From: a virus | UHGV virus genome: UHGV-1370141 | Direction: 5' to 3' (one strand) | Length of the DNA stretch: 64,000 bases | Part shown: one piece after another, positions 460-57,887 of the stretch | Position numbering within the stretch: position 1 is the first letter of the stretch | Layout: the number at the start of each line of letters is the position of its first letter | Position numbers and translations under genes: made by a program | The notes under the pieces: generated by a model | The model's database searches: none | What the model saw: only the letters and a program-made list of their open reading frames with translations | What the model was told of the DNA's origin: nothing

Positions 460-2559
460 TTACTCAATAATCGTTGCTGCGACAGAATTGTCGTACAACG
501 AAGCAGGACGTTTACGTGACGTATAGAAACGTACGTTGTCCAAGTTCTTCTGCTGTCCCTCAAACAACAACATCGGGATTGCAGAACGCATCGCAATCAG
601 TGTATTGTGATCTTCGAAGCGTTTTCCTTCTGCGGCATCGGCATCCTCACTGTCAAACCCTACTGCCGGGAATGGGTTAGTAGGTGACTCAACACGAGAG
701 ATTGCCAACATAATCGCGATGTGCGTCATCGGAATCCCTTTGAGCTTACGTTGGATATATTTGAACACGTAGAACAACGCATGAGTACATTGTTTTTCCG
801 TGGCACCACGCATCTGAACGAGGGTAATCGGTTTAACCTTACCACTCTTCTTGCTCAAACGCATTGACTCGTCCGAGAACTGTTCGAAGTTATCTGACTT
901 GTCCGATGCTACCGAACGTAAAATCAATTCCAACCCTGCTACAAACTCCGCCATAGATTCAGACCGATTCGTATAAATTAGGATCGGCCAGGACGGTTTC
1001 CATCCTTTTAGCGGAACACGCACCGTTTTCTTGCTGGGGAATACGAGCTTATCACGATTCTTCAAGAAGAAGCGAAGGAACGACTTAGAGAAGTTACCGC
1101 AGACGCCCATTCGAACGTCAATCGGATCTTCTGCCAGGATGTTCCCTTCTGCATCTAAACGAACAAACGTAAGGTCATTAATTTCCGGGAGTGCCGTTTC
1201 ATCAATATCGTCCAGGTCTTCATGATACGCAATCTGGCTAATCTCTGAATAGACTTCATCCGAAATTACCAGTTGGTATTCATCCCAGGTACCGTATTGC
1301 GGCTTCTCCAGTAAACTAATCCCTTTAACGGAGTTGTGCTTATACTCCGTGAGATAATCACGCATTCTTGGCGACAAGACCAAGTTCAGCAGATAACGCA
1401 GGAAGTCAAGGTGTTTCGTCGACAGAATACCTTGAGTGCCCTTTTCTGAAATTGCGGTTGACGCAAGGTGACCCGGTGATGTGCCAGGTGACAGGTTATA
1501 AATCAAGTCACCCATACACGTTGCACAGATAGTCTGTCGTGACATCCCTTTGCAACACATCGCGGTACGGAACTCGATAGGTTTGTTCAAGACTTTCTCA
1601 AACTCACCGTCTTCGAATCGTAACCACGGACCACCAGTACCTTCGAAGCGATAACGCATTCCTTTCATCGCTTTGAATTTCGCTTCTTCCAACGGCGAAT
1701 TCGTAAAGGTGTGTCTGTGTACGTGATGTGTACCACAGTCTTCGTAATCGAAGAACATCAGCACGTTAGCCGCTAACTGCAACTTACGCGATGCGTACTC
1801 TGCGTCTGCAATCTTGTCGGTATTATACAGGTGAGAACGCGATGTCGCACCTGCTTCTTTCAGTCGACTGATAACAGAATGCAAGCCGGTGAAGAAACCT
1901 TCCCATACCTGGTTAGAGTACACACGGGAGTCAATCTCTGAAGTCTTACCACGAATGTAAGCCTGGAGAATCTGATCCATTTTCAGTGTGCGGTCTAACA
2001 CAGACATGACAACTGGGTTGTTTGAGAGTCTCGGATCTTTAAAGATTTTCTCAATGAGTTGATAGGCTTCTTCTACCTTATCGTTACCTTCCTCATCGTA
2101 ACCCGTCGGATAGAGTTTAGACCATTCGATAATCAGCTTGAAGTTTTCATGCTGATAAATCTCCATCATCGTATCGTAGTCAATGGTAACACAATACGAC
2201 AACAGGTTTTTCACCGTCAGGTTAAACGCGTTTGCATAAACGTGCTGCGATAACAGGTAACGGGTATCGGCCAGATCCACTCCGGCCTTACGTGCTGCTA
2301 CAGCTGCCAACGACATAAAGCGCAGATGCGCATCGTCAGTTGCCGTGTCGCCATGCTTATACGCCATGTTCGACGAGATTGGCACTTGGGGATAAAACTG
2401 GGTTAATCCCCAATACGGCCAGCTCAACTTAATGTGTCGACCAGACATTCTCAACGTGACCCCATCGTCGAAGGACACGTCGTAAACGCCCCGAAGTAGC
2501 CACACCTGATCCGAATTCAACTTGCACAAGTCTCTTACGTGAACCGGAGTCGCCTTCAT
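460..2559 (-). CDS. multisubunit RNA polymerase beta' subunit, C-terminal fragment (bridge helix + trigger loop region)
   Basis: AAVAARKAGVDLADTRYLL resembles the beta' bridge helix (GARKGLADTALKTA..YLTRRL); AISEKGTQGILSTKHLD resembles the trigger-loop segment SIGEPGTQLTMRTFH. Start overlaps stop of upstream gene (TAATG). Confidence 0.7.
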   Translation of the reverse strand: MKATPVHVRDLCKLNSDQVWLLRGVYDVSFDDGVTLRMSGRHIKLSWPYWGLTQFYPQVPISSNMAYKHGDTATDDAHLRFMSLAAVAARKAGVDLADTRYLLSQHVYANAFNLTVKNLLSYCVTIDYDTMMEIYQHENFKLIIEWSKLYPTGYDEEGNDKVEEAYQLIEKIFKDPRLSNNPVVMSVLDRTLKMDQILQAYIRGKTSEIDSRVYSNQVWEGFFTGLHSVISRLKEAGATSRSHLYNTDKIADAEYASRKLQLAANVLMFFDYEDCGTHHVHRHTFTNSPLEEAKFKAMKGMRYRFEGTGGPWLRFEDGEFEKVLNKPIEFRTAMCCKGMSRQTICATCMGDLIYNLSPGTSPGHLASTAISEKGTQGILSTKHLDFLRYLLNLVLSPRMRDYLTEYKHNSVKGISLLEKPQYGTWDEYQLVISDEVYSEISQIAYHEDLDDIDETALPEINDLTFVRLDAEGNILAEDPIDVRMGVCGNFSKSFLRFFLKNRDKLVFPSKKTVRVPLKGWKPSWPILIYTNRSESMAEFVAGLELILRSVASDKSDNFEQFSDESMRLSKKSGKVKPITLVQMRGATEKQCTHALFYVFKYIQRKLKGIPMTHIAIMLAISRVESPTNPFPAVGFDSEDADAAEGKRFEDHNTLIAMRSAIPMLLFEGQQKNLDNVRFYTSRKRPASLYDNSVAATIIE

Positions 2560-4799
2560 TATTCTTCGCCCCTTTTCATTTTCACCAATTCAAACCCTTC
2601 ACAGCTGTGAATGTTTTTCATCATTCTGTCAATCTGCGAATCTCCTAATGGGAGCTTATTCCGGTCTACCAGTACGCCCGGATTGGAAGGAGTTTGAGAT
2701 CGGTACAGCCCTACTAAAATCTCTCGATGCACAGCAGGGTTATTTGCCCTATCGTGAACCTCTTCGTAGTTACCTGGACCATAACCCGCTAATAGTCGTT
2801 CTTCCGAAGGACCAGCCCATTTCAGCGTTTTATAGTTTACCGGATACGAACCACGTCCTTGGTTAGACGCATCAATCGTGCCCAGGTAGTTCAGGTACAT
2901 CGACGAAATACTTGAGAATTCACGTCCCGTTTTATCAAGCCGTAATGTTTCTACACCACCCACGTAAAACTCGTCTTTTGTCCATTCCTGTTTACCATCG
3001 TAATTGGTAATAAGCAGTTTCGACTTACGGGGTTTAAACTCACCTAAACGTTCACTGATTTCCACCGGAGTGTCATCAAGTTCGTGAGGTAAGTAAATGC
3101 GGATGGTGAAATCGTAAATCTCTTTAAAGAGTTCTCGCTGCAAATCCTCCGTAGGATGCGTAGCCTGTAACGTGTTCGCCCATTCTGGATTATAGCGTGA
3201 AAGGTAGTCCATCAGGATTTCCCAACACTCGCCAATACGCCCTTCATCCAGCATCGGTTTAAGACGCATCTTCAGTTGTTCAGATGCTGCTGACCAATAC
3301 ATGTGGAACAGCGCGGCGTAAGTAGAACGACGAATTACGGCGTTCATTGAACGTAGTACGTGAACACGTTCGCCGAACTCGTTAATTGGCATCTGTTCAA
3401 CTGGCAGTACACGACCCACAATCCCTTTCGTACCCGAACGGTCGGTAATCTTAGAAGACACCGTCACCGGGATCGGATAACGTACCGCGATACGAATTGT
3501 GTACGTGTTGATAGGATCGCTTAATCCACGCTGAACAGGTGAAGTCAGTTTAGAGATAATCTGTTGACTTACGTTCTCTTTACCGTATTCGCCGCGACGA
3601 ATTGCATCTTCAATCACTCCGCGAATTTCTTCACGAAACTCTGCGTAGACTTCGTACGTTTCAGATGCGAAAGCTTTCTCCAGCAACACACACGCTTTGG
3701 GAGACCAGATAACGTTTTTATCTCTCGACACGGAGAAATAGAAGCGAACAATCGCATTGTAGTAGTCCTTTAACGCCAATGCGTATTTGTCAAGCTCACG
3801 TTTGTTCTCTTCAGTACAGTTAATGTTATTCGTTCCATTACCGCATGACGTTTCATCACGCCAAACCTGAATATCAACAATGCGTGTTCCGCTACGTTCC
3901 ATCAGTTCGTGGTTGTTTTCCAAACGTGCTTTATAGTGTATCGGATCGGCATCCACGTAATCACAGTTATCGAAGAACGGAGAAACGTGTTGGGTTTCTC
4001 CTAAGGTTGCATCGATCGCTGCGTACAGGTCATCGAAACGACGAGAAGCGATAACTAACCCGTCATCACGAATCGCTTCACCCACGTCTGGGAAATAGCG
4101 CGGTACACGATTCCCCTCGGGATCGTTATAGCCGTAGGTATCCAGCAAGAATTCATCTTCACGTAAGGTTTTCTCAATAACTTTCAACCCATACCCGTGA
4201 AGCTTCTGTGCCGCTTCTTCGGAAATCGTGTAGGAATCTTCGATAATGTCTGGATGTGAAATGGTAACCGTTGGCAGCACCGCACTGTCTGCGAATTCAC
4301 CATCCACCATGCACGGCATTGTCGTCAGGATTTCATCCTTTTCTAACTGGTCGGTTTCACCACGTAACAAACTGCGCAGTTTTGGCGATTCCCATTTCTC
4401 GGAAGAGAACACGTTATCGTGATTAGTATAAAAGTTAATCTCGATAACATCTATCATTGTTTTGCCCGGAATACGGCATTCTGCACGACGGAAGAATATC
4501 GCGTGTTCCAGCGCACGGGAATCCCCACGACGGCCATAACGGGTAAACGTTGCGCGACGTTGTCTACCTTCCTTAGTTGTGTAATGACAGATGCTCCCAC
4601 TGTCTTCCACAATATCGTTAAACAGAAAATCGTGGTAATTGGTATCTGCTCCCGTAAAGTGAGGTGACGGCTCAGGATGATCAATCGGCACCGAGGACTT
4701 CATATGGTTACCTACCATCGATGCCCTTGCACCTGACACCTGTGCGATATTAACTTCACGGTCAGCGACGCTGCTCAATAGCTCAACTGGCGTTTTCAT
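2559..4799 (-). CDS. multisubunit RNA polymerase beta subunit fragment (catalytic region)
   Basis: TDRSGTKGIVGRVLPVEQMP matches the beta motif NRHGNKGVISKINPIEDMP; YNDPEGNRVP resembles ETPEGPNIGL; translationally coupled to the downstream beta'-C gene. Confidence 0.75.
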   Translation of the reverse strand: MKTPVELLSSVADREVNIAQVSGARASMVGNHMKSSVPIDHPEPSPHFTGADTNYHDFLFNDIVEDSGSICHYTTKEGRQRRATFTRYGRRGDSRALEHAIFFRRAECRIPGKTMIDVIEINFYTNHDNVFSSEKWESPKLRSLLRGETDQLEKDEILTTMPCMVDGEFADSAVLPTVTISHPDIIEDSYTISEEAAQKLHGYGLKVIEKTLREDEFLLDTYGYNDPEGNRVPRYFPDVGEAIRDDGLVIASRRFDDLYAAIDATLGETQHVSPFFDNCDYVDADPIHYKARLENNHELMERSGTRIVDIQVWRDETSCGNGTNNINCTEENKRELDKYALALKDYYNAIVRFYFSVSRDKNVIWSPKACVLLEKAFASETYEVYAEFREEIRGVIEDAIRRGEYGKENVSQQIISKLTSPVQRGLSDPINTYTIRIAVRYPIPVTVSSKITDRSGTKGIVGRVLPVEQMPINEFGERVHVLRSMNAVIRRSTYAALFHMYWSAASEQLKMRLKPMLDEGRIGECWEILMDYLSRYNPEWANTLQATHPTEDLQRELFKEIYDFTIRIYLPHELDDTPVEISERLGEFKPRKSKLLITNYDGKQEWTKDEFYVGGVETLRLDKTGREFSSISSMYLNYLGTIDASNQGRGSYPVNYKTLKWAGPSEERLLAGYGPGNYEEVHDRANNPAVHREILVGLYRSQTPSNPGVLVDRNKLPLGDSQIDRMMKNIHSCEGFELVKMKRGEE

Positions 4800-10821: not shown

Positions 10822-11658
10822 TTAGCGAGCCAGTCTGTGAAGGAACTCAATTACGAAAGGTTCGTTTACCAACTTCAAGCAACTGTAGATACGATCCATC
10901 GTCGTGTCTTGTCGCCAGTGATATTTTTCAGCGGTCTTTAACACCACTTTACGAACTTTTCTGTCCAGGGGAGCGAACATATACCCGTCGCCAAATAACG
11001 TCAGGAACGCTTTGTTAAACGGGATCTGTTCGGGTTTACCGTTAAGTTTCGTGTACCATTCTAATCGACCTTTAATCTTACCCGTGTGTGACTCTAAGAG
11101 ATTCAGTAACGGGAAATCTTTGTAGGCCAATAAGTCGGCAGGGTAATGGGTTAAAATCAGCGTATCGTGCTGCCCTTTCGGGTATACATCAAAGCTTTCG
11201 AACTTCTCAGCATATTTTTCACCGTACAACTTTAACGTGTCATGTTCTAACGCGTTATAGTGTAACTGGTTGGGCGTCATCTTTTCCTGCCCACCTGCGA
11301 TAGTACGGAACGACGCTTCGGGAAAGATTCTGTTCGCACTTTTGTACGTACAGAGATAAGGGACACATAGCACCGAAGGCGCTACCGCTTTCGCGGTAGC
11401 GTAGATAGTATTGATATCTTCTTCAATCGATGCCAGCATCACTTCAGGCGTTAATCTTTCACGATTTGTCTCAAACGCGTAAAACGCGTTACGGAACAGC
11501 GTCCGTACATTCAGGTAAATTTCCTGATACTTGTGGATAGGGATCGGTCCCTTCCAGTCGGCATACTCTCCTTCATGGAGGAGCCCTTCAAAAGCCAACG
11601 ATGTGGCAATTGACATCTGATAAAACCCAAACGTGCGATCAACACTGATTGGGGTCAT
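10822..11658 (-). CDS. hypothetical protein
   Basis: 278-aa ORF, start overlaps stop of the upstream phosphoesterase gene. Confidence 0.55.
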   Translation of the reverse strand: MTPISVDRTFGFYQMSIATSLAFEGLLHEGEYADWKGPIPIHKYQEIYLNVRTLFRNAFYAFETNRERLTPEVMLASIEEDINTIYATAKAVAPSVLCVPYLCTYKSANRIFPEASFRTIAGGQEKMTPNQLHYNALEHDTLKLYGEKYAEKFESFDVYPKGQHDTLILTHYPADLLAYKDFPLLNLLESHTGKIKGRLEWYTKLNGKPEQIPFNKAFLTLFGDGYMFAPLDRKVRKVVLKTAEKYHWRQDTTMDRIYSCLKLVNEPFVIEFLHRLAR

Positions 11659-12803
11659 TTAATACTCCTGATAATGTCAGTAACAATTTGTGTATCGTAT
11701 TTAAACGGCACAAGTGCTTCTAACATAATCGACTCAACATTCTCTTCAGAGATAGTTTCTTCGACTTCAGCGTCGAGAGCGAAACCTGCTGCGAGAACTT
11801 GCTCTTCTTCAGGCGTACGAATACGCGTGCCTGAAATATGGAAAGAATATTGCGACTTCCATTTAGTAATGGCCTCGGCCAATGGAGAATCAGGATAATA
11901 TTCAATTTCCAACCGCCCTATCTCGTAGGACGGATGAGTATCAATATACTCTAACGCCTTGAGACACTTCGCATACTGCGATTCGTAGTCTTCTTCTGCC
12001 GCAATTTTTATTTGCGGGCAAGCGCGTTCGTTAACCAGGAAATAATCCCTGGCCAACTCAGGAGTGAAATCGACAATAGCAAAGCCTTTGTCCTCTTCTT
12101 CACCCATTACCAGACGATCGGGACTGCCTGGTACACGAATCTTACCCAACTGTTTTCGACGATGATCGTGGTGAATGATAATCAAATGCTTGACTAACGG
12201 TTCCCAAAAATCAGTGTGGAAAAAACGGGTAGACTCAACAGGAACTTGAAACTGAAAACAGCCATGCATAAAGCAGAAGTCCATCTGCTCTATACCGCGC
12301 GTGGCTAAAAGCTCAGCCATTTCCTTTTCCGTTGCGGTGGCGTCAATTGTCTCCGACCCTAGGGCTTTATACTCGTCCTGAACCCACCCAATCGTGGCAT
12401 CAAGTGCCTCGTCGTAGAAAACACCAATCTTATCCAGATACAAACAATCTGCGCCAACGGCTGAATTCAGCTCCTCGACAATTTTTGACTGTTTATGATC
12501 GTGGGACGGTGTTCCCTCCAGGACACGGATTGCCGTATTGGTGCTTTTAGCCCAGAACAACAACCAAGTTAAAAACCCTATGGCTTCTTGAGAATCTTCC
12601 TGCCGCAAGTGCCGGGAATCATCAAATAGATCACCAGCTATATAAATAGCGTCAATCGTGTTTTCAAACTTCACCAACGTCTCTTTCAACACATTAACAA
12701 TGTGCCACGTCGGTACACGGCGATGCAAGAGATGTACATCGCCTGTTGAAAAGATACGTTTAACGCCCGCAGGTTTCGGCGGAGGATTAGTAATCGTAAT
12801 CAT
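11655..12803 (-). CDS. calcineurin-like metallophosphoesterase (SbcD/Mre11-like nuclease or phosphatase)
   Basis: Ordered motifs STGDVHL (GDxH), IAGDLFDD (GDxxD), LEGTPSHD (GNHD-like), FMHG, IIHHDH (GHxH-like). Confidence 0.6.
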   Translation of the reverse strand: MITITNPPPKPAGVKRIFSTGDVHLLHRRVPTWHIVNVLKETLVKFENTIDAIYIAGDLFDDSRHLRQEDSQEAIGFLTWLLFWAKSTNTAIRVLEGTPSHDHKQSKIVEELNSAVGADCLYLDKIGVFYDEALDATIGWVQDEYKALGSETIDATATEKEMAELLATRGIEQMDFCFMHGCFQFQVPVESTRFFHTDFWEPLVKHLIIIHHDHRRKQLGKIRVPGSPDRLVMGEEEDKGFAIVDFTPELARDYFLVNERACPQIKIAAEEDYESQYAKCLKALEYIDTHPSYEIGRLEIEYYPDSPLAEAITKWKSQYSFHISGTRIRTPEEEQVLAAGFALDAEVEETISEENVESIMLEALVPFKYDTQIVTDIIRSIK

Positions 12804-14738: not shown

Positions 14739-15088
14739 CTGTTTGTCCACTCCATTCCTTTTGGAGCAGGTGTGCAATGACACCCTCCCATGTTTTCACA
14801 TGGGCACAGACTATATCATAACCGTAGGTATTGCTACCCGTAGGTCTCCCCCACTTCGCCGCTAAACTAAGCAGCTACTCTACTCGGTTTTACCCTTTCG
14901 ATAGTCGTTGAACGATTTTCATCGCTGCTGGTTATCCATTATCACAACCCTTAGCATTATTGGTTAGCATAGGCTATCTTACGAATTGTTTCTGACTTTC
15001 GCCACCCTGTCGGGATCGTAAGCTTTAGGAGTTTCCAGCAATTCGAGGGATACGCACTAGAGGTTTCCCGTCTAGTGGGCCAAATTTT
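14739..15088 (-). ncRNA. group I self-splicing intron (ORF-less, about 350 nt) interrupting the RNAP beta'-like gene
   Basis: Separates ...KAPNA from DFDGDQ...; 5' exon ends in U, intron ends in G; contains P-like ACGGGAAAC, Q-like AUCCCGACAG, R-like GUUCAACGACUA and S-like GAUAUAGUCU elements with complementary GACUA/UAGUC (P7). Confidence 0.8.
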
Positions 15089-16456
15089 AGCATTCGGAGC
15101 TTTGATGACGCGATCGGAGATACGTAACGAACACTGTGTAACATCAGGGTTAACAGCTGAGATAAATAATGTCTGAATAGACAACTGTACAAGCGTCGGG
15201 TTTCGTAGCGCTGATATCATCAGGCCGTAACCGCCACGAGACTCCTTAATAAGTTCGTTGATAATTTCATGAACCAACGGTACGTACTGCATTGATGCAA
15301 ATGCAATAACACGTTCACACTGCCGTGGTGTGAAGTTCCGTCGACCGAGTTTGTTTTCAATAGCTACAGATTCTAACGTCACTAGCCAACGCCAAGGTGC
15401 AATAACCTTCATAGCGTCATGCGGTTCTGAGATTGGAGAGATTGTTACACGACCACCCCACGGGATGTGTGTTGAACCTAACTTGGCACGATAGAATCCA
15501 GGTTTACCTTCCATCACCTCCTGACGATGGTCAATATAGAAGTACGCTAACTGGCGATTTGCTTTTAATGCGCGACTAATAATGAAATGGGTTGGGATGC
15601 GTCGTGCATTAGTATAAAGTAACGCGATGTTCTTAACCGCGTCTATTGCACCGGTATAAACAGGATCGATAAAGATACCCTGACGTCGTTCCTCCGTAAC
15701 GATCAGTTTGGGTGAAATGATTGGAAGATGAACCGGAAAGAAAGTGTGTGATTGTTCTTCGAAGAACTTTTTCCACTCTAAGCGAGTACGTTCGCTCTCA
15801 TATCGGTTATTTTTCGTTGGTGGATAAATTTCTTTCCAGACTTCAGGAGAAGTTAAGATATTGAATATTGTTCGATGGTGGTCAATAAAATTCCTAATGC
15901 CGCGTGGAACTTGATACTCGCTAAAGATACGTTTGATTATTCGGGATCGAGTACCTTCGTCTTTATCAGGTTTATAGCACGGATCTAACATCCACATCAA
16001 TAAATCAGAACCACGTTCTACGGTCACTTTGTTTCGGTTAAACTTCTTAAGTTTAGAACCGAAGAAAGCGTTAAACATCGACCAGAATCGTGGGTTAATA
16101 AAGTTGCCTATTTCCTCCGGGGCACGAATCCAGACTTCTGAAACAATACGATGTTCTGTCACTACATAGCCGCAGGTAGGACATCGCATACCGAGATTAT
16201 ATCGATGAACGATAGGTGCTTCACAATCAATACTACAAATGGGTGCCGAATTTAGCGTCTCGTCGACTGTCCGGTTCTGTAAGATTCGGTTAATCAACTC
16301 TGACGTCTCAATGGTGTCTTTATATTTCGCAACATCATTGATAATCATCGGCGGTTTATAGCCCTTTTCCTCCGCCTCTTTGAAAGCGTCACGTAACATT
16401 TTATCGTGACTGATTAATCGCCCTGATACACCGAAGTATTGTAATCTGTCTTTCAC
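15089..16456 (-). CDS. RNA polymerase beta' N-terminal-like subunit, exon 1
   Basis: GFYRAKLGSTHIPWGGRVTISPI resembles [32 protein letters not shown] resembles NRAPTLHRLGIQ; Cys cluster CPTCGY near the N-terminus; exon ends ...RVIKAPNA immediately before the catalytic motif. Confidence 0.75.
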
Positions 16457-16469
16457 GCCAAATCCTCAA

Positions 16470-16512
16470 CAAAAAAAGAGAGGGAAGGGACAGGGGGTTT
16501 TTCCCCTGTCCC
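16470..16512 (-). terminator. strong rho-independent terminator
   Basis: Hairpin gggacaggggg-ttttt-cccctgtccc followed on minus strand by a long T-run; lies downstream of the highly expressed 612-aa gene. Confidence 0.65.
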
Positions 16513-16544
16513 TAATTACTACCAATTACGCACTACTACATCTG

Positions 16545-18383
16545 TCAGACAGGGCTGTAGTTACCGGAAGCGAATGACATGTTGTAGTCACTGCCGAAGG
16601 AGTTCGGGCCGTTACCAGACAGAGTGAAGTTTTCACCGCCGTTGTTGAAGAACAACGTATTAGCCAGGCTATTGACTGCGGTAACACCATTCACTTGGAA
16701 GATGCAGTTATCACGCACGTAGTCCAGCAGCGCTTTGGCGAATTTCGGGTTGATTGCCAAATCGGTGGACTCGCCAGTTACGACCGGCTGTTTGCTGCCG
16801 AACAGGGAAGCGGCCAGCTTCAGCAGGTACAAACGCTGTTCAGTCGCGTTGAACTGACGGTGTGAGTAAGATTGCGCGTACAGGTAAGTGTAGGCATCGT
16901 GTTGGTTATCACCAACTTTGCTCAGAACAGACACCAGGTCCTGATCCTGGAAGCTACGTTTCTGGCTGTTGCTGAAATACTGACCGGAAACAGTCGGTAC
17001 GCCAGCGATAACAACGTGGTTGCAGGTGATGGTATTAACTTTCAGCATTTCAGCGAAACGCTGCGTGAACACCGTAGCACCTTTCGGAGCCATGTTGTCC
17101 AGGATGGTCAGGATGTTAGACAGTGTACCAGTGTTACCCTGGGAAACTTCACTGAACATCGTGGAGAGACCACCGATACCGTTACCAGCACGATGGTTCA
17201 CAACCAGCGCAGCTTCTGGGTAGGCGAACATGTTCAGGCACTCTTCGATAGCTTCGCGGTTGCCATCGATTTTGCTCAGGTCCGGACGTTTGTCACCCCA
17301 CTCTACGTATTCCATAACGCGGGAGAAACGACGATCGGTTTTGTTGAGAGAGTGCATGAAGCGTTCACGCCAGCCACCGATAGCGGCGATTTCTGCAAAG
17401 GCGGCCAGTTCAATCAGCTGACGTTCGATTGGTACCATAGCCCCGGAAGACTGAGAGTCCATCAGAGAAACAACAACTTCTGCTTGCAGCTGTTTGTAAT
17501 CCTGTACGCCATTTTCAGGTGCACGGCGGCCAGTGTAACGCAGGTTGATGTAACCCACACCCGCAACGCTCGGATAACCCTGAACACGTTCAGAGGACAT
17601 CAGCGTCGGGTTAGTATCGAAGCTACCGGTCTGAGTGTGTTCAACCTGAACCATCAGGTCAGCACGTTGTGCAGAGCCGTTAACGTCAGTCAGAGAACCT
17701 TCGTCTACCGCAGTTACCTGTGCAACGAAGCGATCGCCACGAGTCAGTTTCAGCTGACCCAGGTAGCCCGGAATACGGCCAAAGATACCCAGAGTCAGCT
17801 GACCCATCAGCTGGATAGCCCACTCTTCGGTCAGCGTTTTACCCAGGTCTGGAATGCAGTTCATTACCATGAATTGCACAGACGACAGGTTCTGCTGTTC
17901 GCAGATTTGTTTGGTGATGGAATCCATTACGCCAGCCTGACCGAACAGAGATGCCAGGGTGTAATAAGTTTCTTTACCGTTGATTTCACGGAAGCGTACA
18001 GACTGACCGTGTTCGAAGAACAGGATACCGTACATCCAGTGGCTGCCGTTTTCATCTGCTGGCGCAGCAACGTATGCCGCAGAACCCATTTCTGGATTCA
18101 CACCATCGATAACACCGCAGCGGAATTTGCTCAGGTACGGGTTACGTTCAACCATCTTCGCAATCAGCGCGGTGAAATGTGAAGCGGCAGAAACGTAGGA
18201 CATATAGCCGAACGCTTTATCGAAAGTGGAGATATTCTTAGACATACCACCGAAAGCATTTGCTGCGTGGGTGTTATCCACACTGCCTGCACCAGCACCT
18301 ACACCACCAAAAGACGGAGCCGGGTCTACACCAGCAGCGCCAGCATTTACGTTGTTAGGAATTTCGTTAAACTCTTTAGCCAT
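16545..18383 (-). CDS. highly expressed major protein; candidate phage-nucleus shell protein (chimallin-like) or capsid protein
   Basis: 612 aa with strongly optimal codon usage (ctg, cgt, ggt, aac), Gly-rich N- and C-terminal extensions, tandem promoter motifs upstream and a strong terminator downstream; no diagnostic motif recognised. Confidence 0.35.
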   Translation of the reverse strand: MAKEFNEIPNNVNAGAAGVDPAPSFGGVGAGAGSVDNTHAANAFGGMSKNISTFDKAFGYMSYVSAASHFTALIAKMVERNPYLSKFRCGVIDGVNPEMGSAAYVAAPADENGSHWMYGILFFEHGQSVRFREINGKETYYTLASLFGQAGVMDSITKQICEQQNLSSVQFMVMNCIPDLGKTLTEEWAIQLMGQLTLGIFGRIPGYLGQLKLTRGDRFVAQVTAVDEGSLTDVNGSAQRADLMVQVEHTQTGSFDTNPTLMSSERVQGYPSVAGVGYINLRYTGRRAPENGVQDYKQLQAEVVVSLMDSQSSGAMVPIERQLIELAAFAEIAAIGGWRERFMHSLNKTDRRFSRVMEYVEWGDKRPDLSKIDGNREAIEECLNMFAYPEAALVVNHRAGNGIGGLSTMFSEVSQGNTGTLSNILTILDNMAPKGATVFTQRFAEMLKVNTITCNHVVIAGVPTVSGQYFSNSQKRSFQDQDLVSVLSKVGDNQHDAYTYLYAQSYSHRQFNATEQRLYLLKLAASLFGSKQPVVTGESTDLAINPKFAKALLDYVRDNCIFQVNGVTAVNSLANTLFFNNGGENFTLSGNGPNSFGSDYNMSFASGNYSPV

Positions 18384-18424
18384 TTTATTTATCCTTTAAA
18401 GGTTTAATACAATTGTAGTGTTGG

Positions 18425-18449
18425 TTCACGTAGATAACATATACCTGAG
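18425..18449 (-). promoter_or_regulatory. promoter-like motif copy 1 upstream of the 612-aa gene
   Basis: Coding strand CTCAGGTATATGTTATCTACGTGAA, a variant of GATAGATATTATCCTAGTGAG. Approximate. Confidence 0.4.
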
Positions 18450-18504
18450 ATATTTTAGAATGCGTCTAGAACACACATAACTCAAAATAGTTAACCACCG
18501 AACC

Positions 18505-18530
18505 ATCACATAGATAATATCATTCTCAGA
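18505..18530 (-). promoter_or_regulatory. promoter-like motif copy 2 upstream of the 612-aa gene
   Basis: Coding strand CTGAGAATGATATTATCTATGTGATG; second tandem copy in the divergent intergenic region. Confidence 0.4.
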
Positions 18531-18589
18531 TATTTTTCAATGTGAGTAGAATGTGACCGTTTCCTATGTGTAACCCCAAGGAGTCAGTC

Positions 18590-19651
18590 ATGTTCAGTCA
18601 AGCCGAGTTAAACCAAGCAGTCATAAAGGGGCGCTACGAAGACCCTTCTGCTATACAATTGGTCAATGCCGTAAAAAATAATAACCAGCGCATTCGCAAC
18701 TATTTAGAATCGATTCAAACCAGCGTTGGTTCTGGTCATCTCGTCCTAAAAATCTTAGCAGCTATCGGCTATGCCGGTGAACCCACGTACGAAGAAATCG
18801 AATGGGCTTGTCGTCGAAAGCTGTCAGATATCGGCAACGCTCTACGCTTAACTTCTGTGGGGGAGTATGGTCAAGTTTTTAACGGCGCTTTTATAGAAGG
18901 TCAGGATGAAATCATCTCGTTAGTTGCGAGACCTGTCGATCCTAATCTTTCTTTCCGTGACTACACACCGGCGGTTTACCTTTATCACGAATACACGAAT
19001 CTTAACTGGACGCTCGGTAACGGAAAACCCCGAGGGATCAGCATTATCGAGATAAATCTGGTTGCACTACTGTGGCAATATGTTCTTGCTGAACAATACT
19101 ACCGAACACAACCAGAACCCATCACGCGCTTGGTATACGCGCAGCGACACATCATTTACAGGATGTTACCCAGTTACATGGATATCGCTTTATTAAATAT
19201 TCATCGTGCGATTGCCTTCGGTAAAGAGATAGAAGAAGAAAACCCGTTACGAGTTATTCCGACTCCGCCTCTACGCGATTTAGCAATCCGTCACGCGAAA
19301 GCGATTTCAAAATCGTTACGTGCTGGTAAACCTCTACCTGCGGTTGTCATGGCTCACATACCTCAGATTTTCGAAGACCCGAATAAACCGTCCACGGCGT
19401 TGGATCGAATTCTGTTTAAAGAACCCGGTTCGACAATTCAAGGCAGTTGGCATCGAAATATCGTCAACTGGTATTGGGCATTGTTCTGCCTGCAATACGA
19501 CAACACGAGCATGGGTAAATACAAATCTAATCTGATGGTAAGGATTGCCCGTTTCGAGGATGCAAAGATTCTGGAGAAACTTACACGTTCGGCAAGAAAC
19601 TACTACCGACACGAGTTAATTCTGCCATTATACAGTGCGCTCGAAAAATAA
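18590..19651 (+). CDS. hypothetical protein
   Basis: Track ORF 18566..19651; ATG at 18590 is preceded by AAGGAG, so used as the start. Confidence 0.55.
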   Translation: MFSQAELNQAVIKGRYEDPSAIQLVNAVKNNNQRIRNYLESIQTSVGSGHLVLKILAAIGYAGEPTYEEIEWACRRKLSDIGNALRLTSVGEYGQVFNGAFIEGQDEIISLVARPVDPNLSFRDYTPAVYLYHEYTNLNWTLGNGKPRGISIIEINLVALLWQYVLAEQYYRTQPEPITRLVYAQRHIIYRMLPSYMDIALLNIHRAIAFGKEIEEENPLRVIPTPPLRDLAIRHAKAISKSLRAGKPLPAVVMAHIPQIFEDPNKPSTALDRILFKEPGSTIQGSWHRNIVNWYWALFCLQYDNTSMGKYKSNLMVRIARFEDAKILEKLTRSARNYYRHELILPLYSALEK

Positions 19652-19773: not shown

Positions 19774-22071
19774 TTACTCCTCATCGAATGTTTCTTCTTC
19801 ATCTTCCTCCTCATCATCCTCACCTGCCCTTTCTGATTTCTTGACATACTGTACTTCCGCAAGCTCTTTATACAATCCTTCGTCTTCAGCGGTTTTATCG
19901 TAGAAATCCGACAGTAAACGCATACGGTTTTTATCCATCATGAACACACCTAAGCATTCAAGGATGTGATAGTACGGTTCTACGGTGGAGAACGCCGTGC
20001 GACGAATGTCCGCAATTTCGATCAATTCTTTAGGAATACCGTAGTTCTCTACTAAGTGCTCTGGCAGAATCAACGTTTTGTATTTACGGAAATTGTTTTC
20101 CTCAAACCACGCGGTTGCACCGTTTCGGATAATCGGATCTTCGATGCTGTCCAACCACTCTTTAATCTTGGTTTTGTTTTCTAAAACCACCGGTAGTTTT
20201 ACAGCGTCGTAAGGCGGTTCTTCCAAATGGCCAAACTTCGGACCAAAGATGGCGTTGTACATTCGATGATAGTGATAGTTTTTCTCGTCCTTCTCGTTAT
20301 AAGCGCTACGTTCCTTAATGTTCGTTGTTTTCAGATAGCCCGGATTACCCGAACGAATGGAATCCATAATGGTGTGTTCAATCTGCGCAACCTTTTCCAG
20401 TAACGGAATGATTTCAATCTGGTCACCACGTGCGACGACTTCACACAGTCCTTTAATAGTATTCTTAAACTCCTTCATGATAATCGGTGGAATGTTCGAG
20501 GTACGTAAAGACACCCCTTTTACTTCCAGCTCGGGATCTTTTTTCAACTGACCTTCCTGACCGGTAATCAGTGAGAAGTAGTGTTTTGCTTTAGTCGTTA
20601 ATGCAAACGAATCGAACTTAAATTCGTTCTTCATCGCGTACAAGAACAGACGTTCTTTCGCTACACCGATATTCGCAGACATACTCGCCATCAGGTGACG
20701 GAGGTGTTGCGTTGCAATATAAATCATTGCATTGGATACACGAGTTGCTTCTTCACCGTAATGCTTACCAGTATACCAAACCGCCCACCATTGTGCAGTC
20801 ATCATTGTAGAGTCGGTATCTGAAACCACACCTACCCGACGAACCACATCCGGCATTCTTGCGATATTAATCGGTAAGTTTTTAGTGGTCAGGATATTGC
20901 GAATTAAAAGTGCGTACTTACCGATGGTTTTCTGTAAGAACAGTGCGGAACGAATCAGCTCCTTATAGTCGTCCTGCTGATCCCACGGTAATGGCTTTTT
21001 CTTATCGTCGAGTTTCTTAACGTGGCTGAACGCTTTGCCCATCGGCACCACGTCAGTACGGAACTGGGAGATGATGATCTGCATGTCACCATCAATGGTT
21101 TTTTCCGCAGCATCCCAGTCTTCGACTTCGTCAATCATCTCACGAGAAATCAACGCGGTAATAAAACCACGCATGAACTGATCGTTGTACTTCGCAAGAT
21201 GATAAAAATCACCCATGTAAACAAATGCCGCGCGAGTGAGCGGAGAAACATTTGATACATAGTGCTCAACAAACTCCATCCCCTCTTCGTTCTTGAAATA
21301 AAAGTCCGCAGAGTAATGAATCACGTCCATCACTTCTTCTACGGTCGGATAATGAAGCTCGTACGTATCCATACATTTCTTGAAGCTATTCCAATCGGTT
21401 AACGTGCCGATGGACAAGAAATGATCGATGATACGTGACGGTGTGTCGTAATGACGATTACCGCCTAATAAACGTTCGTTACCTGCGTTACCGAATGAGG
21501 TTGCAGTACGGCAGGTTGATGTTAAAACAGAGTGTGAAGACTGGTTAAAGATGATCGTGTACGGAGAAGAGAATGCGCCCGACATCCCGTTGTTCAGAGT
21601 CTTGACTGCGTTCTGTTCATTCTTTTTGTTAATCTGTAAAACTCTATTACCTGCTGCTTCGGCAGCAAACATCTCTTTTTTCACCGCTGCACGTTTAGCT
21701 ACGTTAGCGGCAGTGAATTCTGATAGCTTGGAACGTTTGATGTGTTCTGGGATATAAAACGTTAACGACGGTGCGGAGATAATCTGTTTATCGATTACGG
21801 TTTTAAACAGTTTATCAACAGTTGTGTATTTCTCTTCACGGTCTCCTGTTTTCTGATTACGCACCCACATCTTACACAGCGGTGATTCGGTTGATAACTC
21901 ACCGCCAGGTGCCAACATCTCGTCAACTTCTTTACGACATAATTCCAAAGGGTATTTTTGTGCGGTTACGTTGTGAATGTATAGCGCAACCTGTTCACGA
22001 TAAGCATCGTTAATATCGATATCACGATGGTACTCGTCTACCGATAAACGAAAAGGAGAATTGTATTCCAC
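19774..22071 (-). CDS. DNA polymerase-like protein (family B-like palm motifs), acidic C-terminal tail
   Basis: VGVVSDTDSTMM resembles motif C (YGDTDS); KAKHYFS about 55 aa later resembles the KxY motif; EVKGVSLRTSNIPP resembles KIMGLETQKSSTP of T4-family polymerases; ends ERAGEDDEEEDEEETFDEE. Motifs A/B and exonuclease motifs not recognised. Confidence 0.4.
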   Translation of the reverse strand: MEYNSPFRLSVDEYHRDIDINDAYREQVALYIHNVTAQKYPLELCRKEVDEMLAPGGELSTESPLCKMWVRNQKTGDREEKYTTVDKLFKTVIDKQIISAPSLTFYIPEHIKRSKLSEFTAANVAKRAAVKKEMFAAEAAGNRVLQINKKNEQNAVKTLNNGMSGAFSSPYTIIFNQSSHSVLTSTCRTATSFGNAGNERLLGGNRHYDTPSRIIDHFLSIGTLTDWNSFKKCMDTYELHYPTVEEVMDVIHYSADFYFKNEEGMEFVEHYVSNVSPLTRAAFVYMGDFYHLAKYNDQFMRGFITALISREMIDEVEDWDAAEKTIDGDMQIIISQFRTDVVPMGKAFSHVKKLDDKKKPLPWDQQDDYKELIRSALFLQKTIGKYALLIRNILTTKNLPINIARMPDVVRRVGVVSDTDSTMMTAQWWAVWYTGKHYGEEATRVSNAMIYIATQHLRHLMASMSANIGVAKERLFLYAMKNEFKFDSFALTTKAKHYFSLITGQEGQLKKDPELEVKGVSLRTSNIPPIIMKEFKNTIKGLCEVVARGDQIEIIPLLEKVAQIEHTIMDSIRSGNPGYLKTTNIKERSAYNEKDEKNYHYHRMYNAIFGPKFGHLEEPPYDAVKLPVVLENKTKIKEWLDSIEDPIIRNGATAWFEENNFRKYKTLILPEHLVENYGIPKELIEIADIRRTAFSTVEPYYHILECLGVFMMDKNRMRLLSDFYDKTAEDEGLYKELAEVQYVKKSERAGEDDEEEDEEETFDEE

Positions 22072-26152: not shown

Positions 26153-26179
26153 TAACTTTAAATACTCCTTTAAGGGAAC

Positions 26180-26203
26180 ATCACAGAGATAATATCTATA
26201 CGA
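26180..26203 (-). promoter_or_regulatory. recurrent promoter-like motif (coding strand CGTATAGATATTATCTCTGTGATG)
   Basis: About 30 nt upstream of the SD of the first gene of the small-gene array. Approximate. Confidence 0.4.
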
Positions 26204-26318
26204 AAAAAGTTCGAGTATAGTGCGCACAGGAAGGGCATAGAGTGTATTTTTTAGTAGTGGTGTAGTTACCCATTACCCGATCCTATGAACCGTTTTACAG
26301 AGCTAACAGGAGCACACA

Positions 26319-28520: not shown

Positions 28521-28564
28521 TTTATCAGTTCCTAAAAAGTCGAAGTAAACGTTTCACGCGAACA

Positions 28565-28587
28565 CTCACTAAAATAATATCTATCTC
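28565..28587 (-). promoter_or_regulatory. recurrent promoter-like motif (coding strand GAGATAGATATTATTTTAGTGAG)
   Basis: About 50 nt upstream of the 28080..28520 start. Approximate. Confidence 0.45.
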
Positions 28588-28599
28588 TAAAATTTTGCG

Positions 28600-29388: not shown

Positions 29389-29828
29389 TTCTGTTACCTC
29401 GTTCTGTTACTACTACTCGTTCTGTTGTACGTCGCTATACCCCGACGTGTGGGTTAATGGGACGCGTTGAACGTCTGTTGAGGCGCAGCAGGCAGTGGCA
29501 GCAATGACAGCAAGGGCAGCAATGGTACAAACGCCAACGCGAATAAAAAACGCTACTGTCACTGAACACAGCTTCAGAATACTGACAATAACGCAAAAAG
29601 GGTGTCGCTAACGGGTGTCGAGCCCCAGCCTCGGTGTGTAGCCACGTCACCAGGCATAGCGACAAAGTTCGGTACTGGTCAAACACAGCATGACATGGGA
29701 CGATGAAGGTTTACAGGTGATCATCGACCAGTACCGTCGAGTTAACACGTAACTCTCAATTCACATTACAGGGTATTCACGTTACACTTAGGGGAAATAC
29801 CCAATAATTAAATTCTTGGTGGGTGCAG

Positions 29829-29894
29829 GTGGGAGGTTTTATCCTCCCACCGTACAACCGTTTAGGTGGTCTAACCACCAGGGTCTCACGACCC
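29829..29894. other. cluster of three consecutive perfect stem-loops (structured RNA or processing site candidate)
   Basis: ggtgggagg-tttta-cctcccacc, ggtggt-ctaa-accacc, gggtc-tcac-gaccc; no flanking T-runs; non-coding context next to the tRNA-like element. Confidence 0.35.
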
Positions 29895-30042
29895 TAACGT
29901 AAGTCCGAACTTAATCGGTAGGTGTTTACACGTTTTTAAGGAGCTTTCTACCCGTGAGCAAGAGCAGAAGTTATCAGAACAACCGACGCTCAGTTGAAGG
30001 CTGACGAGTTTGTAACTCTTGTTCGATTGCTCTAATCTGGGC

Positions 30043-30115
30043 GACCAATGGCAGGATTCGAACCTGCGAAATAACCGATTATTAGTCGGGTGTTAATTCC
30101 TCTAACTTCAATGGT
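30043..30115 (-). tRNA. tRNA-like element (about 73 nt; anticodon uncertain, possibly pseudo-tRNA)
   Basis: Perfect T-arm GCAGG-TTCGAAT-CCTGC, 7-bp acceptor stem with one mismatch, anticodon-like stem-loop CCGA-CTAATAA-TCGG; D-arm weak and no encoded CCA. Hand-folded only. Confidence 0.4.
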
Positions 30116-30124
30116 CTAAATCCA

Positions 30125-32711: not shown

Positions 32712-33836
32712 TTACGGACAGACCTGTTCTTTCTGAGGGTAGTGCAGTTTTACCTCCAACAGGCTGTAGCCCGTGGCGTAGAAAATCTGACTCCCCACTG
32801 AAGCCACAAAGCCTTCAGGGTCAATCACCTCAACGGAGAAATCCGATTCGAAAAGCCAGGTTTCTTGCTTACCGTCTCGTTCGAATACCGCTGCATAGCG
32901 ACCGTACTCCGCACCCCGTCGGAAGCGGAAAAGCGTTAACCCTGTTTCACGTTCGTAACCGGAAATCACACCCCCTTCCTCGAAAATCTCGGCACGGTTA
33001 CAGCGGGTAACGGTCAATAACGCCGGTCGTTGTGTTGGAATGGTTTTGAACGGGGAAGGCCCTTCGTATGTCGTTGAGACCCAGTCTCCCATGTTGTCCA
33101 GCGCTAACGCTCGGTATGCGATAGGGGACTTGTAATTACACAGCCGATTCCCTTCCGTGTACATCGTGTATTCGATACGTAACGTCGTACCGACGATGTC
33201 TTCCAGGGAAAGTTTGTAGTGTTCTAACTGTGCCTGAATACGTCGTGAGAGTATCGTGCACAGGAAGGTGTGTCCTTCGGAAGAACGACAAACGATTCCG
33301 TAATCCGTTACGGCCAAAAGCGTCGCATCGGTTTTACGGACAGGTTCTAATCGGAATGTGTGTTCACCCGTTTCGATGATAAACTGGGAAACGGCTTGGT
33401 TACGGGATTTGACTTTAATCATGTCAAATACGTCACCGGCTTTTACGATTAATGGCTCAACAACGTTCACCTGGAAAGGCAAGGGTTTCGTGGGATACTG
33501 GCCTAGTGTGGTAATCGTTACCGAACTGAGTTCGGGGTCTGATGCGTCAGGGTCACTAGACAGCCAGTACGTTAACCACTTAGACAGCGTTTGTGGGATA
33601 ACACGGGTGGTGTAAAATAACACCTCGCCTTGTAACCCTGCTTCCGCCAGTTCTCGTGCTAAGAACGAGTTGACGGCGTCGTAAGTACCGTTACGCAGGA
33701 TGTCCATCCCACCGACTCTGTCCAGGTCACAAATCACGCCGTGAGGAAGCACCCACATCTTGACTTGTTGTTCGCGGTCGATGGTACCTTCACGCAACAT
33801 CTTGTGCCAAGCAGGTTTGCGCAGATAATTTCTCAT
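32712..33836 (-). CDS. hypothetical protein
   Basis: Track ORF 32712..33869 trimmed to the ATG at 33836 (M12), which is preceded by AAAGGAG; promoter motif upstream. Confidence 0.55.
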   Translation of the reverse strand: MRNYLRKPAWHKMLREGTIDREQQVKMWVLPHGVICDLDRVGGMDILRNGTYDAVNSFLARELAEAGLQGEVLFYTTRVIPQTLSKWLTYWLSSDPDASDPELSSVTITTLGQYPTKPLPFQVNVVEPLIVKAGDVFDMIKVKSRNQAVSQFIIETGEHTFRLEPVRKTDATLLAVTDYGIVCRSSEGHTFLCTILSRRIQAQLEHYKLSLEDIVGTTLRIEYTMYTEGNRLCNYKSPIAYRALALDNMGDWVSTTYEGPSPFKTIPTQRPALLTVTRCNRAEIFEEGGVISGYERETGLTLFRFRRGAEYGRYAAVFERDGKQETWLFESDFSVEVIDPEGFVASVGSQIFYATGYSLLEVKLHYPQKEQVCP

Positions 33837-33863
33837 GGTAAAAACTCCTTTAGGTAATAAGAC

Positions 33864-33888
33864 TCTCACTAGGATAATATCTATCCGT
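33864..33888 (-). promoter_or_regulatory. recurrent promoter-like motif (coding strand CGGATAGATATTATCCTAGTGAGAG)
   Basis: About 25 nt upstream of the SD of the 32712..33836 gene, in a divergent intergenic region. Approximate. Confidence 0.45.
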
Positions 33889-33908
33889 AATAATTTCGAG
33901 GTTCACTG

Positions 33909-35285: not shown

Positions 35286-35335
35286 AAAAAGAGTTAGCCT
35301 GAGACCCCGGTGGGTCTCAGGCTAGTTTATTTTAA
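35284..35335. terminator. bidirectional rho-independent terminator
   Basis: 12-bp hairpin agcctgagaccc-cggt-gggtctcaggct flanked by A-run and T-run. Confidence 0.65.
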
Positions 35336-35341
35336 AAGGCT

Positions 35342-35581
35342 TCAATGGGCCCCGGATACCGCTAATAGGTGGATGGTGTACACCAAGTTTAGAGCGTAAG
35401 TCGTTGATGTCCCTGCCACCATTAATCCGAATACTGCTACCGCCTGCGCATACCGCGTCGTACGATGACACACACCGTGCGATGCACCGTATCGTTCTAT
35501 CGATTGGTAACTGTGTCTAATCATTTTGTACGTCGCGATCCACGAAAAGAACACGAGCAAATAGTAAATTGGAGCCATCAC
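35342..35581 (-). CDS. small hydrophobic (probably membrane) protein
   Basis: 79 aa with two hydrophobic segments (IYYLLVFFSWIATY, AVAVFGLMVAGTSTTYALNLVYTIHLLAV); start overlaps the terminase stop (ATGA). Confidence 0.4.
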   Translation of the reverse strand: MMAPIYYLLVFFSWIATYKMIRHSYQSIERYGASHGVCHRTTRYAQAVAVFGLMVAGTSTTYALNLVYTIHLLAVSGAH

Positions 35582-37686: not shown

Positions 37687-37698
37687 ACAGACTCCTAA

Positions 37699-37737
37699 CC
37701 TCCTACCCTTGCGGGTAGGAGGTCTTTTATTTTTTAT
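37699..37737 (+). terminator. hairpin with T-run in plus orientation, between two minus-strand genes
   Basis: cctcctaccc-ttgc-gggtaggagg followed by TCTTTTATTTTTTATT; sits just upstream of the terminase SD on the opposite strand. Confidence 0.4.
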
Positions 37738-46621: not shown

Positions 46622-47104
46622 TTATTCGTCGTCTTCGTCATCGGAAGCCATCATGTCCGCAGCGAATTGCTTACGAAGTTTGCCTTCCAGTGCTTTAGAC
46701 TTCGGCACACCGTAACCGAAACCGATGGATGCAGCCCATTCTTTCTGGCTGATGGTGTCCCCGGTCGGGCGAGAGAACACCGTGGAGAACGATGCGTTGC
46801 CGATTTCGGTGGTGATGTTCATCGCGGCCAACTCAGCATCGGCTTTCGCTTTTTCCACAATCAGACCAGAAGCGACTTTCCCGTACACTTCCAGGAAGTT
46901 AGCATCGTGTTGACGAACCGCGTCGGCGTCTTTCAGCGTTAAGCGATAGTCAGTATCGTTAACTTTGATAACCGGCAGCGTTTCTTCATAAATTTTTACC
47001 ATCGGGTCAGCGTTGACCACCAGGTCGTCGTTCATGGTCATTGCCGGAGTTTCCAGTGCATCGATCATTGCAGCCAGGTCTTTGATAGAAGTTACTTTAG
47101 CCAT
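46622..47104 (-). CDS. hypothetical protein with acidic C-terminal tail
   Basis: 160 aa ending MASDDEDDE. Confidence 0.5.
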   Translation of the reverse strand: MAKVTSIKDLAAMIDALETPAMTMNDDLVVNADPMVKIYEETLPVIKVNDTDYRLTLKDADAVRQHDANFLEVYGKVASGLIVEKAKADAELAAMNITTEIGNASFSTVFSRPTGDTISQKEWAASIGFGYGVPKSKALEGKLRKQFAADMMASDDEDDE

Positions 47105-48599: not shown

Positions 48600-48650
48600 C
48601 TTTAATACTCCTTTAGGTTAACAAGTCGAATAGCGTGTAATTCTACAACG

Positions 48651-48675
48651 CTCACCTAAGTAATATATATCTAAG
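48651..48675 (-). promoter_or_regulatory. recurrent promoter-like motif (coding strand CTTAGATATATATTACTTAGGTGAG)
   Basis: About 50 nt upstream of the 48210..48599 start. Approximate. Confidence 0.4.
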
Positions 48676-48741
48676 ATATTTTTCAATAGGGCTAAAAATA
48701 AGTAGGGTAGTCTATCCAATGGATAGACTACCCGAGAGGTT

Positions 48742-57884: not shown

Positions 57885-57887
57885 TGA

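Follow-up and report, generated by a model that had tools for sequence, protein, structure and literature searches.

The DNA considered here is a window of 64,000 nucleotides from a virus (UHGV virus genome UHGV-1370141), in which a single minus-strand open reading frame (ORF) of 612 amino acids (aa) stands at the center of the analysis. This ORF, called chmA below, almost certainly encodes chimallin (ChmA), the main protein from which the phage nucleus is built, in a jumbo phage of the SPN3US/Asesino lineage of the Chimalliviridae. An initial annotation had proposed a nucleus shell protein and not a capsid protein at this locus, and four kinds of evidence agree with that proposal: the orthology, the ring formed by a green fluorescent protein (GFP) fusion of the Asesino protein, the chimallin fold, and the gene order shared with phiKZ.

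The chmA coding sequence

The coding sequence and its translation start are defined by two features.

16545..18383, minus strand: chmA coding sequence, ATG start, 612 aa, 66.6 kDa, isoelectric point 5.5; stop codon at 16545-16547
18392..18396, minus strand: Shine-Dalgarno AAGGA, 8 nt 5′ of the chmA ATG, read from the sequence

The first residue, M1, is invariant in the alignment of 26 homologues, and this invariance, together with the upstream AAGGA, supports the start codon of chmA. Codon usage was compared among 62 non-overlapping ORFs of the window of at least 60 aa, taken greedily by length; for the effective number of codons (Nc), the mean and standard deviation (sd) were computed over ORFs of at least 150 aa. 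The Nc of chmA is 35.0, the minimum among the 62 ORFs (mean 49.7, sd 6.4), and its frequency of optimal codons (Fop), calculated with an E. coli-type (enterobacterial) set of optimal codons, is 0.81, the maximum (mean 0.57, sd 0.09). With the lowest Nc and the highest Fop, the ORF has, as was claimed for it at the outset, the most optimal codon usage of the window, and chmA is the most expression-optimised gene there. The second strongest codon bias belongs to a 160-aa ORF at 46622-47104 on the minus strand (phrog_7952, function unknown; Fop 0.775, Nc 37.2), which suggests another very abundant protein. A 436-aa ORF at 16872..18182 on the plus strand lies wholly within chmA in antisense orientation and was rejected as a gene; most likely it arose from the strong codon bias of chmA, under which few stop codons remain on the other strand.

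The same properties are the starting point of a rival explanation, in which the 612-aa ORF is the major capsid protein with the HK97 fold; in tailed phages the large gene with the highest expression usually encodes this protein. The strongest codon bias of the window and the strong transcription signals around the gene are in keeping with a capsid protein, and the size is compatible with the capsid proteins of jumbo phages. This explanation is taken up again with the fold, the relatives and the position of the gene.

Predicted fold and terminal tails

An AlphaFold2 model was built from the 26-sequence alignment and reached a predicted TM-score (pTM) of 0.77. It divides the protein into a confident core (residues 64-570) and two disordered tails (residues 1-63 and 571-612), where the predicted local distance difference test (pLDDT) falls below 50.

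16674..18194, minus strand: two-domain core, codons 64-570, with an N-terminal alpha/beta domain and a GNAT-like C-terminal domain
18195..18383, minus strand: N-terminal tail, codons 1-63, hypervariable and of low complexity to about residue 50, with FDxAFG(W/Y) at residues 54-60
16548..16673, minus strand: C-terminal tail, codons 571-612, with LF(F/Y)NNGGExFxLSGxG at residues 576-592 and an SD(F/Y)-containing end

The Foldseek comparison of the model with the PDB returned chimallins as all of its top nine matches (Goslar, 201phi2-1 and the phiPA3 protein PhuN), with E values from 2e-22 to 7e-19, a probability of 1.00 and TM-scores of 0.58-0.71, and the tenth match followed at E 0.03. The core can thus be superposed on the solved chimallins and has the fold of the chimallin family. 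No HK97 capsid protein was present among the Foldseek matches to the PDB. The initial annotation had named an HK97 fold as the outcome that would speak against a shell protein; such a fold did not appear, chimallin chains ranked first, and the predicted fold contradicts the identification of the ORF as a capsid protein.

The presence of a GNAT-like domain raises another explanation, namely that the ORF encodes an active GNAT-type acetyltransferase or a toxin-like enzyme which shares one domain with chimallin and is not a shell protein. The distant relationship in the Foldseek results is the one published for the chimallin C-terminal domain, and the likeness to the GNAT-fold tRNA-acetylating toxins (AtaT/TacT) concerns this one domain only, with no sequence similarity. 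In published chimallins this GNAT-like domain lacks the active-site residues (PMC9365700), and the Asesino orthologue localises as a shell (PMC11724907). An enzyme is therefore a very improbable identity for the ORF; the 612-aa protein does not appear to be a member of the AtaT/TacT family, and its function would be structural rather than enzymatic.

In the chimallin of phage 201phi2-1, the N-terminal segment (NTS, residues 48-61) immediately precedes the N-terminal domain and docks on an adjoining protomer of the tetramer, while the C-terminal segments (residues 590-611 and 622-631) tie the tetramers into a flexible square lattice with pores about 1.4 nm wide, which keep out folded proteins (PMC9365700). 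The motifs FDxAFGW and LFxNNGGExFxLSG of the 612-aa protein sit at the positions expected from 201phi2-1. The model places a short helix at residues 51-57 of the N-terminal tail, and in the alignment of the C-terminal tail F578, N580 and G592 are invariant, with L588 and G590 nearly so. By analogy, FDxAFG(W/Y) is a candidate NTS, LF(F/Y)NNGGExFxLSGxG a candidate first C-terminal segment (CTS1) and the SD(F/Y) end a candidate second one (CTS2). The tails had been described initially as Gly-rich extensions. Glycine is indeed enriched in them (15.9% in the N-terminal and 14.3% in the C-terminal tail, against 8.3% in the core), but the N-terminal tail is better called Ala/Gly/Asn-rich and the C-terminal tail Asn/Ser/Gly/Phe-rich. 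The GGE at residues 582-584 (16629-16637), a G-x-E within NNGGE, was also considered as a prohead-protease site like that of phiKZ gp54; its Glu is not conserved across the family, which leaves it as a hint only.

Orthology and sequence relatives

The search of the protein against 50,697 phage genomes with tBLASTN found 62 phage records with one full-length match each, all with at least 80% query coverage. These are jumbo phages of Erwinia, Salmonella, Cronobacter, Escherichia and Proteus, and all the matches are labelled "hypothetical protein". The best are Asesino gp39 (57.8% identity over 91%) and SPN3US YP_009153316.1 (54.8% over 92%). The latter, RefSeq ACQ60_gp244 (15768..17621) and GenBank SPN3US_0022, is the orthologue of the chmA ORF. 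Laughlin et al. (2022) listed in their SI Table 7 the chimallins SPN3US YP_009153316.1, Asesino gp039, ChrisDB gp253, Phobos gp024 and CR5 gp023 (PMC9365700), and all of these were recovered among the relatives of chmA (ChrisDB gp253 as P0011, Phobos gp024 as P0022). In the same work, the diverged chimallin of SPN3US is called "gp244" and has 10% identity to the 201phi2-1 chimallin (PMC9365700). The gene numbers of SPN3US run in opposite directions in RefSeq and GenBank (gp244 is SPN3US_0022), which invites mix-ups: the possibility that "gp244" denotes another gene, GenBank SPN3US_0244, was rejected, since that gene encodes a 240-aa protein and lies towards the opposite end of the genome, and the name is the RefSeq tag of SPN3US_0022.

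Direct localization is available for the closest relative. GFP-tagged Asesino gp039 (ASESINO_39) localises as a ring that encircles the phage DNA stained with DAPI, and the capsid protein of Asesino is a different product, gp091, which argues further against the capsid explanation (PMC11724907).

The protein falls in phrog_8316 of the PHROGs database (E 4e-242), a family with no annotated function, and phiKZ gp54 falls in phrog_4795, the "nuclear shell protein". A profile of the chmA family matched just 27 clusters among 1.84 billion representatives. Nine of the ten distant matches that were scanned also match phrog_4795, with E values down to 2e-33, and one of these nine, P0050, exceeds the cut-off of the Pfam family Chimallin_Phikzvirus (35.4 bits against 27). 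The precomputed PF25677.3 matches 12 of the 26 relatives. As judged from these profile matches, intermediate metagenomic proteins bridge phrog_8316 and phrog_4795.

Signals upstream and downstream of chmA

The intergenic region 5′ of chmA is 182 bp long and carries two copies of AAAATATCTNAGNNNNATNTTATCTANGTGA on the chmA coding strand, 80 bp apart. A position weight matrix (PWM) was made from eight copies of the motif and used to scan the window.

18421..18459, minus strand: proximal motif copy (AAAATATCTNAGNNNNATNTTATCTANGTGA match at 18426-18456), core ATGTTATCTACGTGA, about 38 nt separating the copy from the ATG; PWM score 24.5
18500..18538, minus strand: distal motif copy (AAAATATCTNAGNNNNATNTTATCTANGTGA match at 18506-18536), core ATATTATCTATGTGA, 80 bp 5′ of the proximal copy; PWM score 28.0
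16471..16513, minus strand: intrinsic-terminator-like element with an 11-bp stem (GGGACAGGGG/CCCCTGTCCC core), a 6-nt loop, TTCCCTCTC and T7

The AAAATATCTNAGNNNNATNTTATCTANGTGA pattern had no matches in 100 shuffles of the window. Alignment with the equivalent regions of SPN3US, ChrisDB and Asesino, phages with proteins just 47-58% identical to the 612-aa protein, shows that both copies are kept 5′ of the orthologous gene; the ATATTATC-like core is invariant, and TGTGA comes after it. The tandem motifs that had been reported upstream of the ORF are in this way borne out.

In jumbo phages that encode RNA polymerases, the virion RNA polymerase recognises early promoters that consist of a phage-specific, AT-rich motif, about 10 nt in length, near -10 (PMC7598289). 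The upstream motif of chmA agrees with this description, and a promoter function is the likely one. The sigma-70 scan of the window gave no enrichment (16 found against 19.8 expected), and the intergenic sigma-70 hits are oppositely oriented, so host-type promoters are not supported.

The PWM found four more sites in the window, with the core GATATTATCnnTGTGA, all on the minus strand (28560-28598, 33860-33898, 26176-26214 and 48647-48685). Each precedes a minus-strand ORF start, and the copy at 33860-33898 overlaps the listed GTG start of the ORF at 32712-33869. The tandem arrangement is present only at chmA. The chmA copies and these four appear to form one promoter class, probably that of early virion-RNA-polymerase promoters.

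On the 3′ side of the gene, the G+C-rich hairpin at 16513-16486 (minus strand) has a folding free energy of -23.5 kcal/mol by sliding-window folding, and the intergenic fold 3′ of chmA has a z of -3.4. SPN3US, Asesino and ChrisDB each have a hairpin with the CUCUUUUUUUG tail at this position, with stems that differ in sequence; the conservation of position and tail despite differing stems argues for function. The generic terminator scan missed this hairpin because its T run begins 9 nt past the stem. The gene had been credited initially with the strongest terminator of the window. A conserved hairpin terminator is present, but three loci fold slightly better (35291-35326 on the minus strand, -26.3 kcal/mol; 37691-37726, -24.0 kcal/mol; 29821-29856, -23.9 kcal/mol), which places the chmA hairpin between second and fourth, depending on the measure used, and second when only hairpins with a T run after them are counted.

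Two of the stronger hairpins, at 35291-35328 and 37690-37726, are very stable, to an equal degree on either strand, with a T run on each side. Located between convergent genes, the first is the strongest of the window (-26.3 kcal/mol on the minus and -25.9 kcal/mol on the plus strand). Both have the appearance of bidirectional terminators that bracket the region of the terminase gene.

Genome context

The neighbours of chmA are genes of transcription and replication, together with one of unknown function.

14957..16456, minus strand: N-terminal subunit of the non-virion RNA polymerase (nvRNAP) beta′, downstream neighbour; phrog_2987, E 2e-136
18566..19651, plus strand: 361-aa gene of unknown function, divergently transcribed; phrog_3938, E 7e-127
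19774..22071, minus strand: divergent DNA polymerase, upstream neighbour; phrog_2927, 1050 bits; PF20286 divDNApol on identical contigs

By its place, the gene at 14957..16456 corresponds to Asesino gp40 (nvRNAP beta′1), SPN3US_0023 and phiKZ gp55, and the gene at 18566..19651 to SPN3US_0021, Asesino gp38 and phiKZ gp52. The order DNA polymerase, opposite-strand gene (about 350 aa), chmA, nvRNAP beta′ and, further on, SbcD matches phiKZ gp50-gp65 and SPN3US gp18-gp27; up to nvRNAP beta′ the block has the order of phiKZ gp50-gp55 and SPN3US gp18-gp23. The window as a whole is collinear with SPN3US in inverted orientation, and the ends of the SPN3US reference sequence fall inside it. Split genes for the beta and beta′ subunits of multisubunit RNA polymerases, of both the virion and the non-virion sets, were found at 460-4799, 14957-16456 and 53718-59513. 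Both marks of the Chimalliviridae, the two multisubunit RNA polymerases and the position of chmA adjoining nvRNAP beta′, are present, and the window is part of the genome of a nucleus-forming jumbo phage of this family.

The window also contains SbcD (11655-12803), the terminase (35578-37686), the tail sheath (42872-44929) and the head maturation protease (50339-51142). A lone tRNA gene on the minus strand (30040-30116; tRNA-Ile, anticodon AAT) lies in the region which corresponds to the ends of the SPN3US genome.

The chmA gene sits amid genes of replication and transcription; none of the terminase, protease and tail genes is closer than 17 kb, so that the early remark that it does not adjoin the terminase or tail module is correct. 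With this position, the fold and the separate Asesino capsid protein all against it, the capsid explanation has a negligible probability.

One further explanation accepts the chimallin fold and assigns it to a paralogue, a minor or specialised component of the shell, with the bulk of the lattice made by a gene elsewhere in the genome. The analysis covered 64 kb of a genome of about 222 kb, which leaves room for a second chimallin-like gene beyond the window. Within the 64-kb window, a second chimallin copy or paralogue of chmA was sought and none was found, and in 62 of 62 related phage records tBLASTN detected exactly one locus per genome. The ORF moreover holds the conserved chmA position adjoining nvRNAP beta′, as in phiKZ, in the literature the chimallins assigned to SPN3US and Asesino belong to its orthologue group, and the extreme codon bias suits a major and not a minor component. 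The paralogue explanation is, on this evidence, highly unlikely.

Proposed role in the formation of the phage nucleus

The identification of the 612-aa ORF as the chimallin of the phage allows a mechanism to be proposed from its homologues in 201phi2-1, Goslar, phiPA3 and Asesino. ChmA is one of the first and most plentiful phage products, and its gene is transcribed by the virion RNA polymerase injected into the cell (PMC12908238). In the phage considered here, this polymerase would transcribe chmA very early in infection, probably from the two tandem AT-rich promoters, and transcription would halt at the strong hairpin ahead of the nvRNAP beta′ gene. The strong Shine-Dalgarno sequence and the extreme codon bias would then help the translation of the mRNA at a high rate. 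The acidic two-domain protomers are expected to assemble into tetramers, in which the N-terminal segment with FDxAFGW would dock on the neighbour. The tetramers, in turn, may form a flexible square lattice, with the C-terminal segments (LFxNNGGExFxLSG and the terminal segment) reaching adjacent tetramers. The resulting shell, one protein thick, would surround the replicating phage DNA, keep out ribosomes and host nucleases, and part transcription from translation.

Several points weigh against this reading of the locus. The evidence for the fold is a predicted model, not a solved structure, and the tails which would mediate assembly are outside it; what points to the timing, the abundance and the lattice formation of the 612-aa protein is homology and sequence signals. 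Searches of PDB sequences with phmmer and with the 26-sequence family profile returned nothing relevant, the solved chimallins being unmatched. The local Pfam model PF25677.1 misses the chmA ORF and its close relatives, and the hhalign comparison of the family profile with phiKZ gp54, collinear over 477 columns, is not significant (probability 1.5%, E 0.033). Nor is BLASTP of the chmA protein against phiKZ gp54 significant. A profile search against ChmA, suggested in the initial annotation, consequently gave a divided result: the link was obtained indirectly, through the phrog_4795 intermediates and P0050, but the direct Pfam, PDB and hhalign comparisons were not significant. The PDB sequence matches to PNPase S1 and VapC20 (E 0.1-1.4) were dismissed as chance, and in the Pfam search of the ORF and six relatives nothing was above threshold, with DUF7323, FliC_D2 and MHC_I_C regarded as noise. 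The arguments from size, expression signals and flexible tails on which the shell protein was first proposed fit the chimallin identification, but they would be insufficient alone.

The divergence of the lineage invites one broader, and tentative, suggestion. Chimallins of the SPN3US/Asesino type, the 612-aa protein among them, may have nothing but the core fold in common with the solved ones and build a lattice of different geometry through tail motifs of their own (FDxAFGW and LFxNNGGExFxLSG), expressed from a clade-conserved cassette of two tandem virion-RNA-polymerase promoters, a strong ribosome-binding site and a hairpin terminator. This is a possibility that the evidence leaves somewhat short of even chances. 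If true, the upstream motif would be the first defined early-promoter consensus of the SPN3US/Asesino lineage.

Distribution and significance

The chimallin family, its presence in the SPN3US/Asesino clade and the shell localization of the closest relative are already published, and metagenomic surveys of chimallin-encoding phages have been made (PMC12625630). New is only this member of the family, from an uncultivated phage, with about 55-58% identity to the closest protein described so far. The level of identity to Asesino and SPN3US indicates a separate lineage, at about the genus level or deeper. This lineage is known solely from metagenome and Logan assemblies. The identical protein occurs on 12 contigs, of which the four listed come from four different samples and include a 222.6-kb scaffold, and its cluster at 90% identity holds 337 sequences; the phage is therefore not rare.

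The practical value of the analysis is in annotation, as it names the shell gene of the window. Pipelines will go on missing the chimallin of this clade because of the unnamed PHROG 8316, the miss by PF25677.1 and the 62 "hypothetical protein" labels; finding it needs fold comparison or transitive profile searches. For a lineage without a solved chimallin, the conserved tandem upstream motif offers a modest new lead on early transcription, and the conserved tail motifs offer one on lattice contacts. The current picture of phage nuclei is unchanged.

Comparison with known chimallins

The closest systems are the chimallins of Asesino (gp039) and SPN3US, which are like the 612-aa protein in their neighbours, orientation, tandem upstream motif, terminator, tail motifs and membership of PHROG 8316. 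The differences from these two are small in length (612 aa here, 617-618 aa there) and visible at the C-terminal end, which reads ...ASGNYSPV here and ...S(N/D)F(K/N)L in most relatives.

The chimallins of 201phi2-1 (gp105), Goslar (gp189), phiPA3 (gp53, PhuN) and phiKZ (gp54) have the same overall layout, with a disordered N-terminal tail, a short docking segment (a candidate one in the 612-aa protein), a core and C-terminal segments. The solved chimallins and the 612-aa protein are alike in acidic character and in length (602-631 aa), as the size argument for a shell protein had supposed, and in phiKZ the chmA position is likewise beside nvRNAP beta′ and near the DNA polymerase. Identity to the solved chimallins in structural alignments is 12-16%. 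Compared with the phiKZ-type proteins, the family is different (PHROG 8316 here, 4795 there), and the docking motifs of the tails cannot be aligned by sequence. A square lattice was observed in SPN3US lysates, and 201phi2-1 and Goslar were studied by cryo-electron microscopy and tomography; the lattice periodicity reported is 13.5 nm in SPN3US, in contrast to 11.5 nm in 201phi2-1 and Goslar (PMC9365700).

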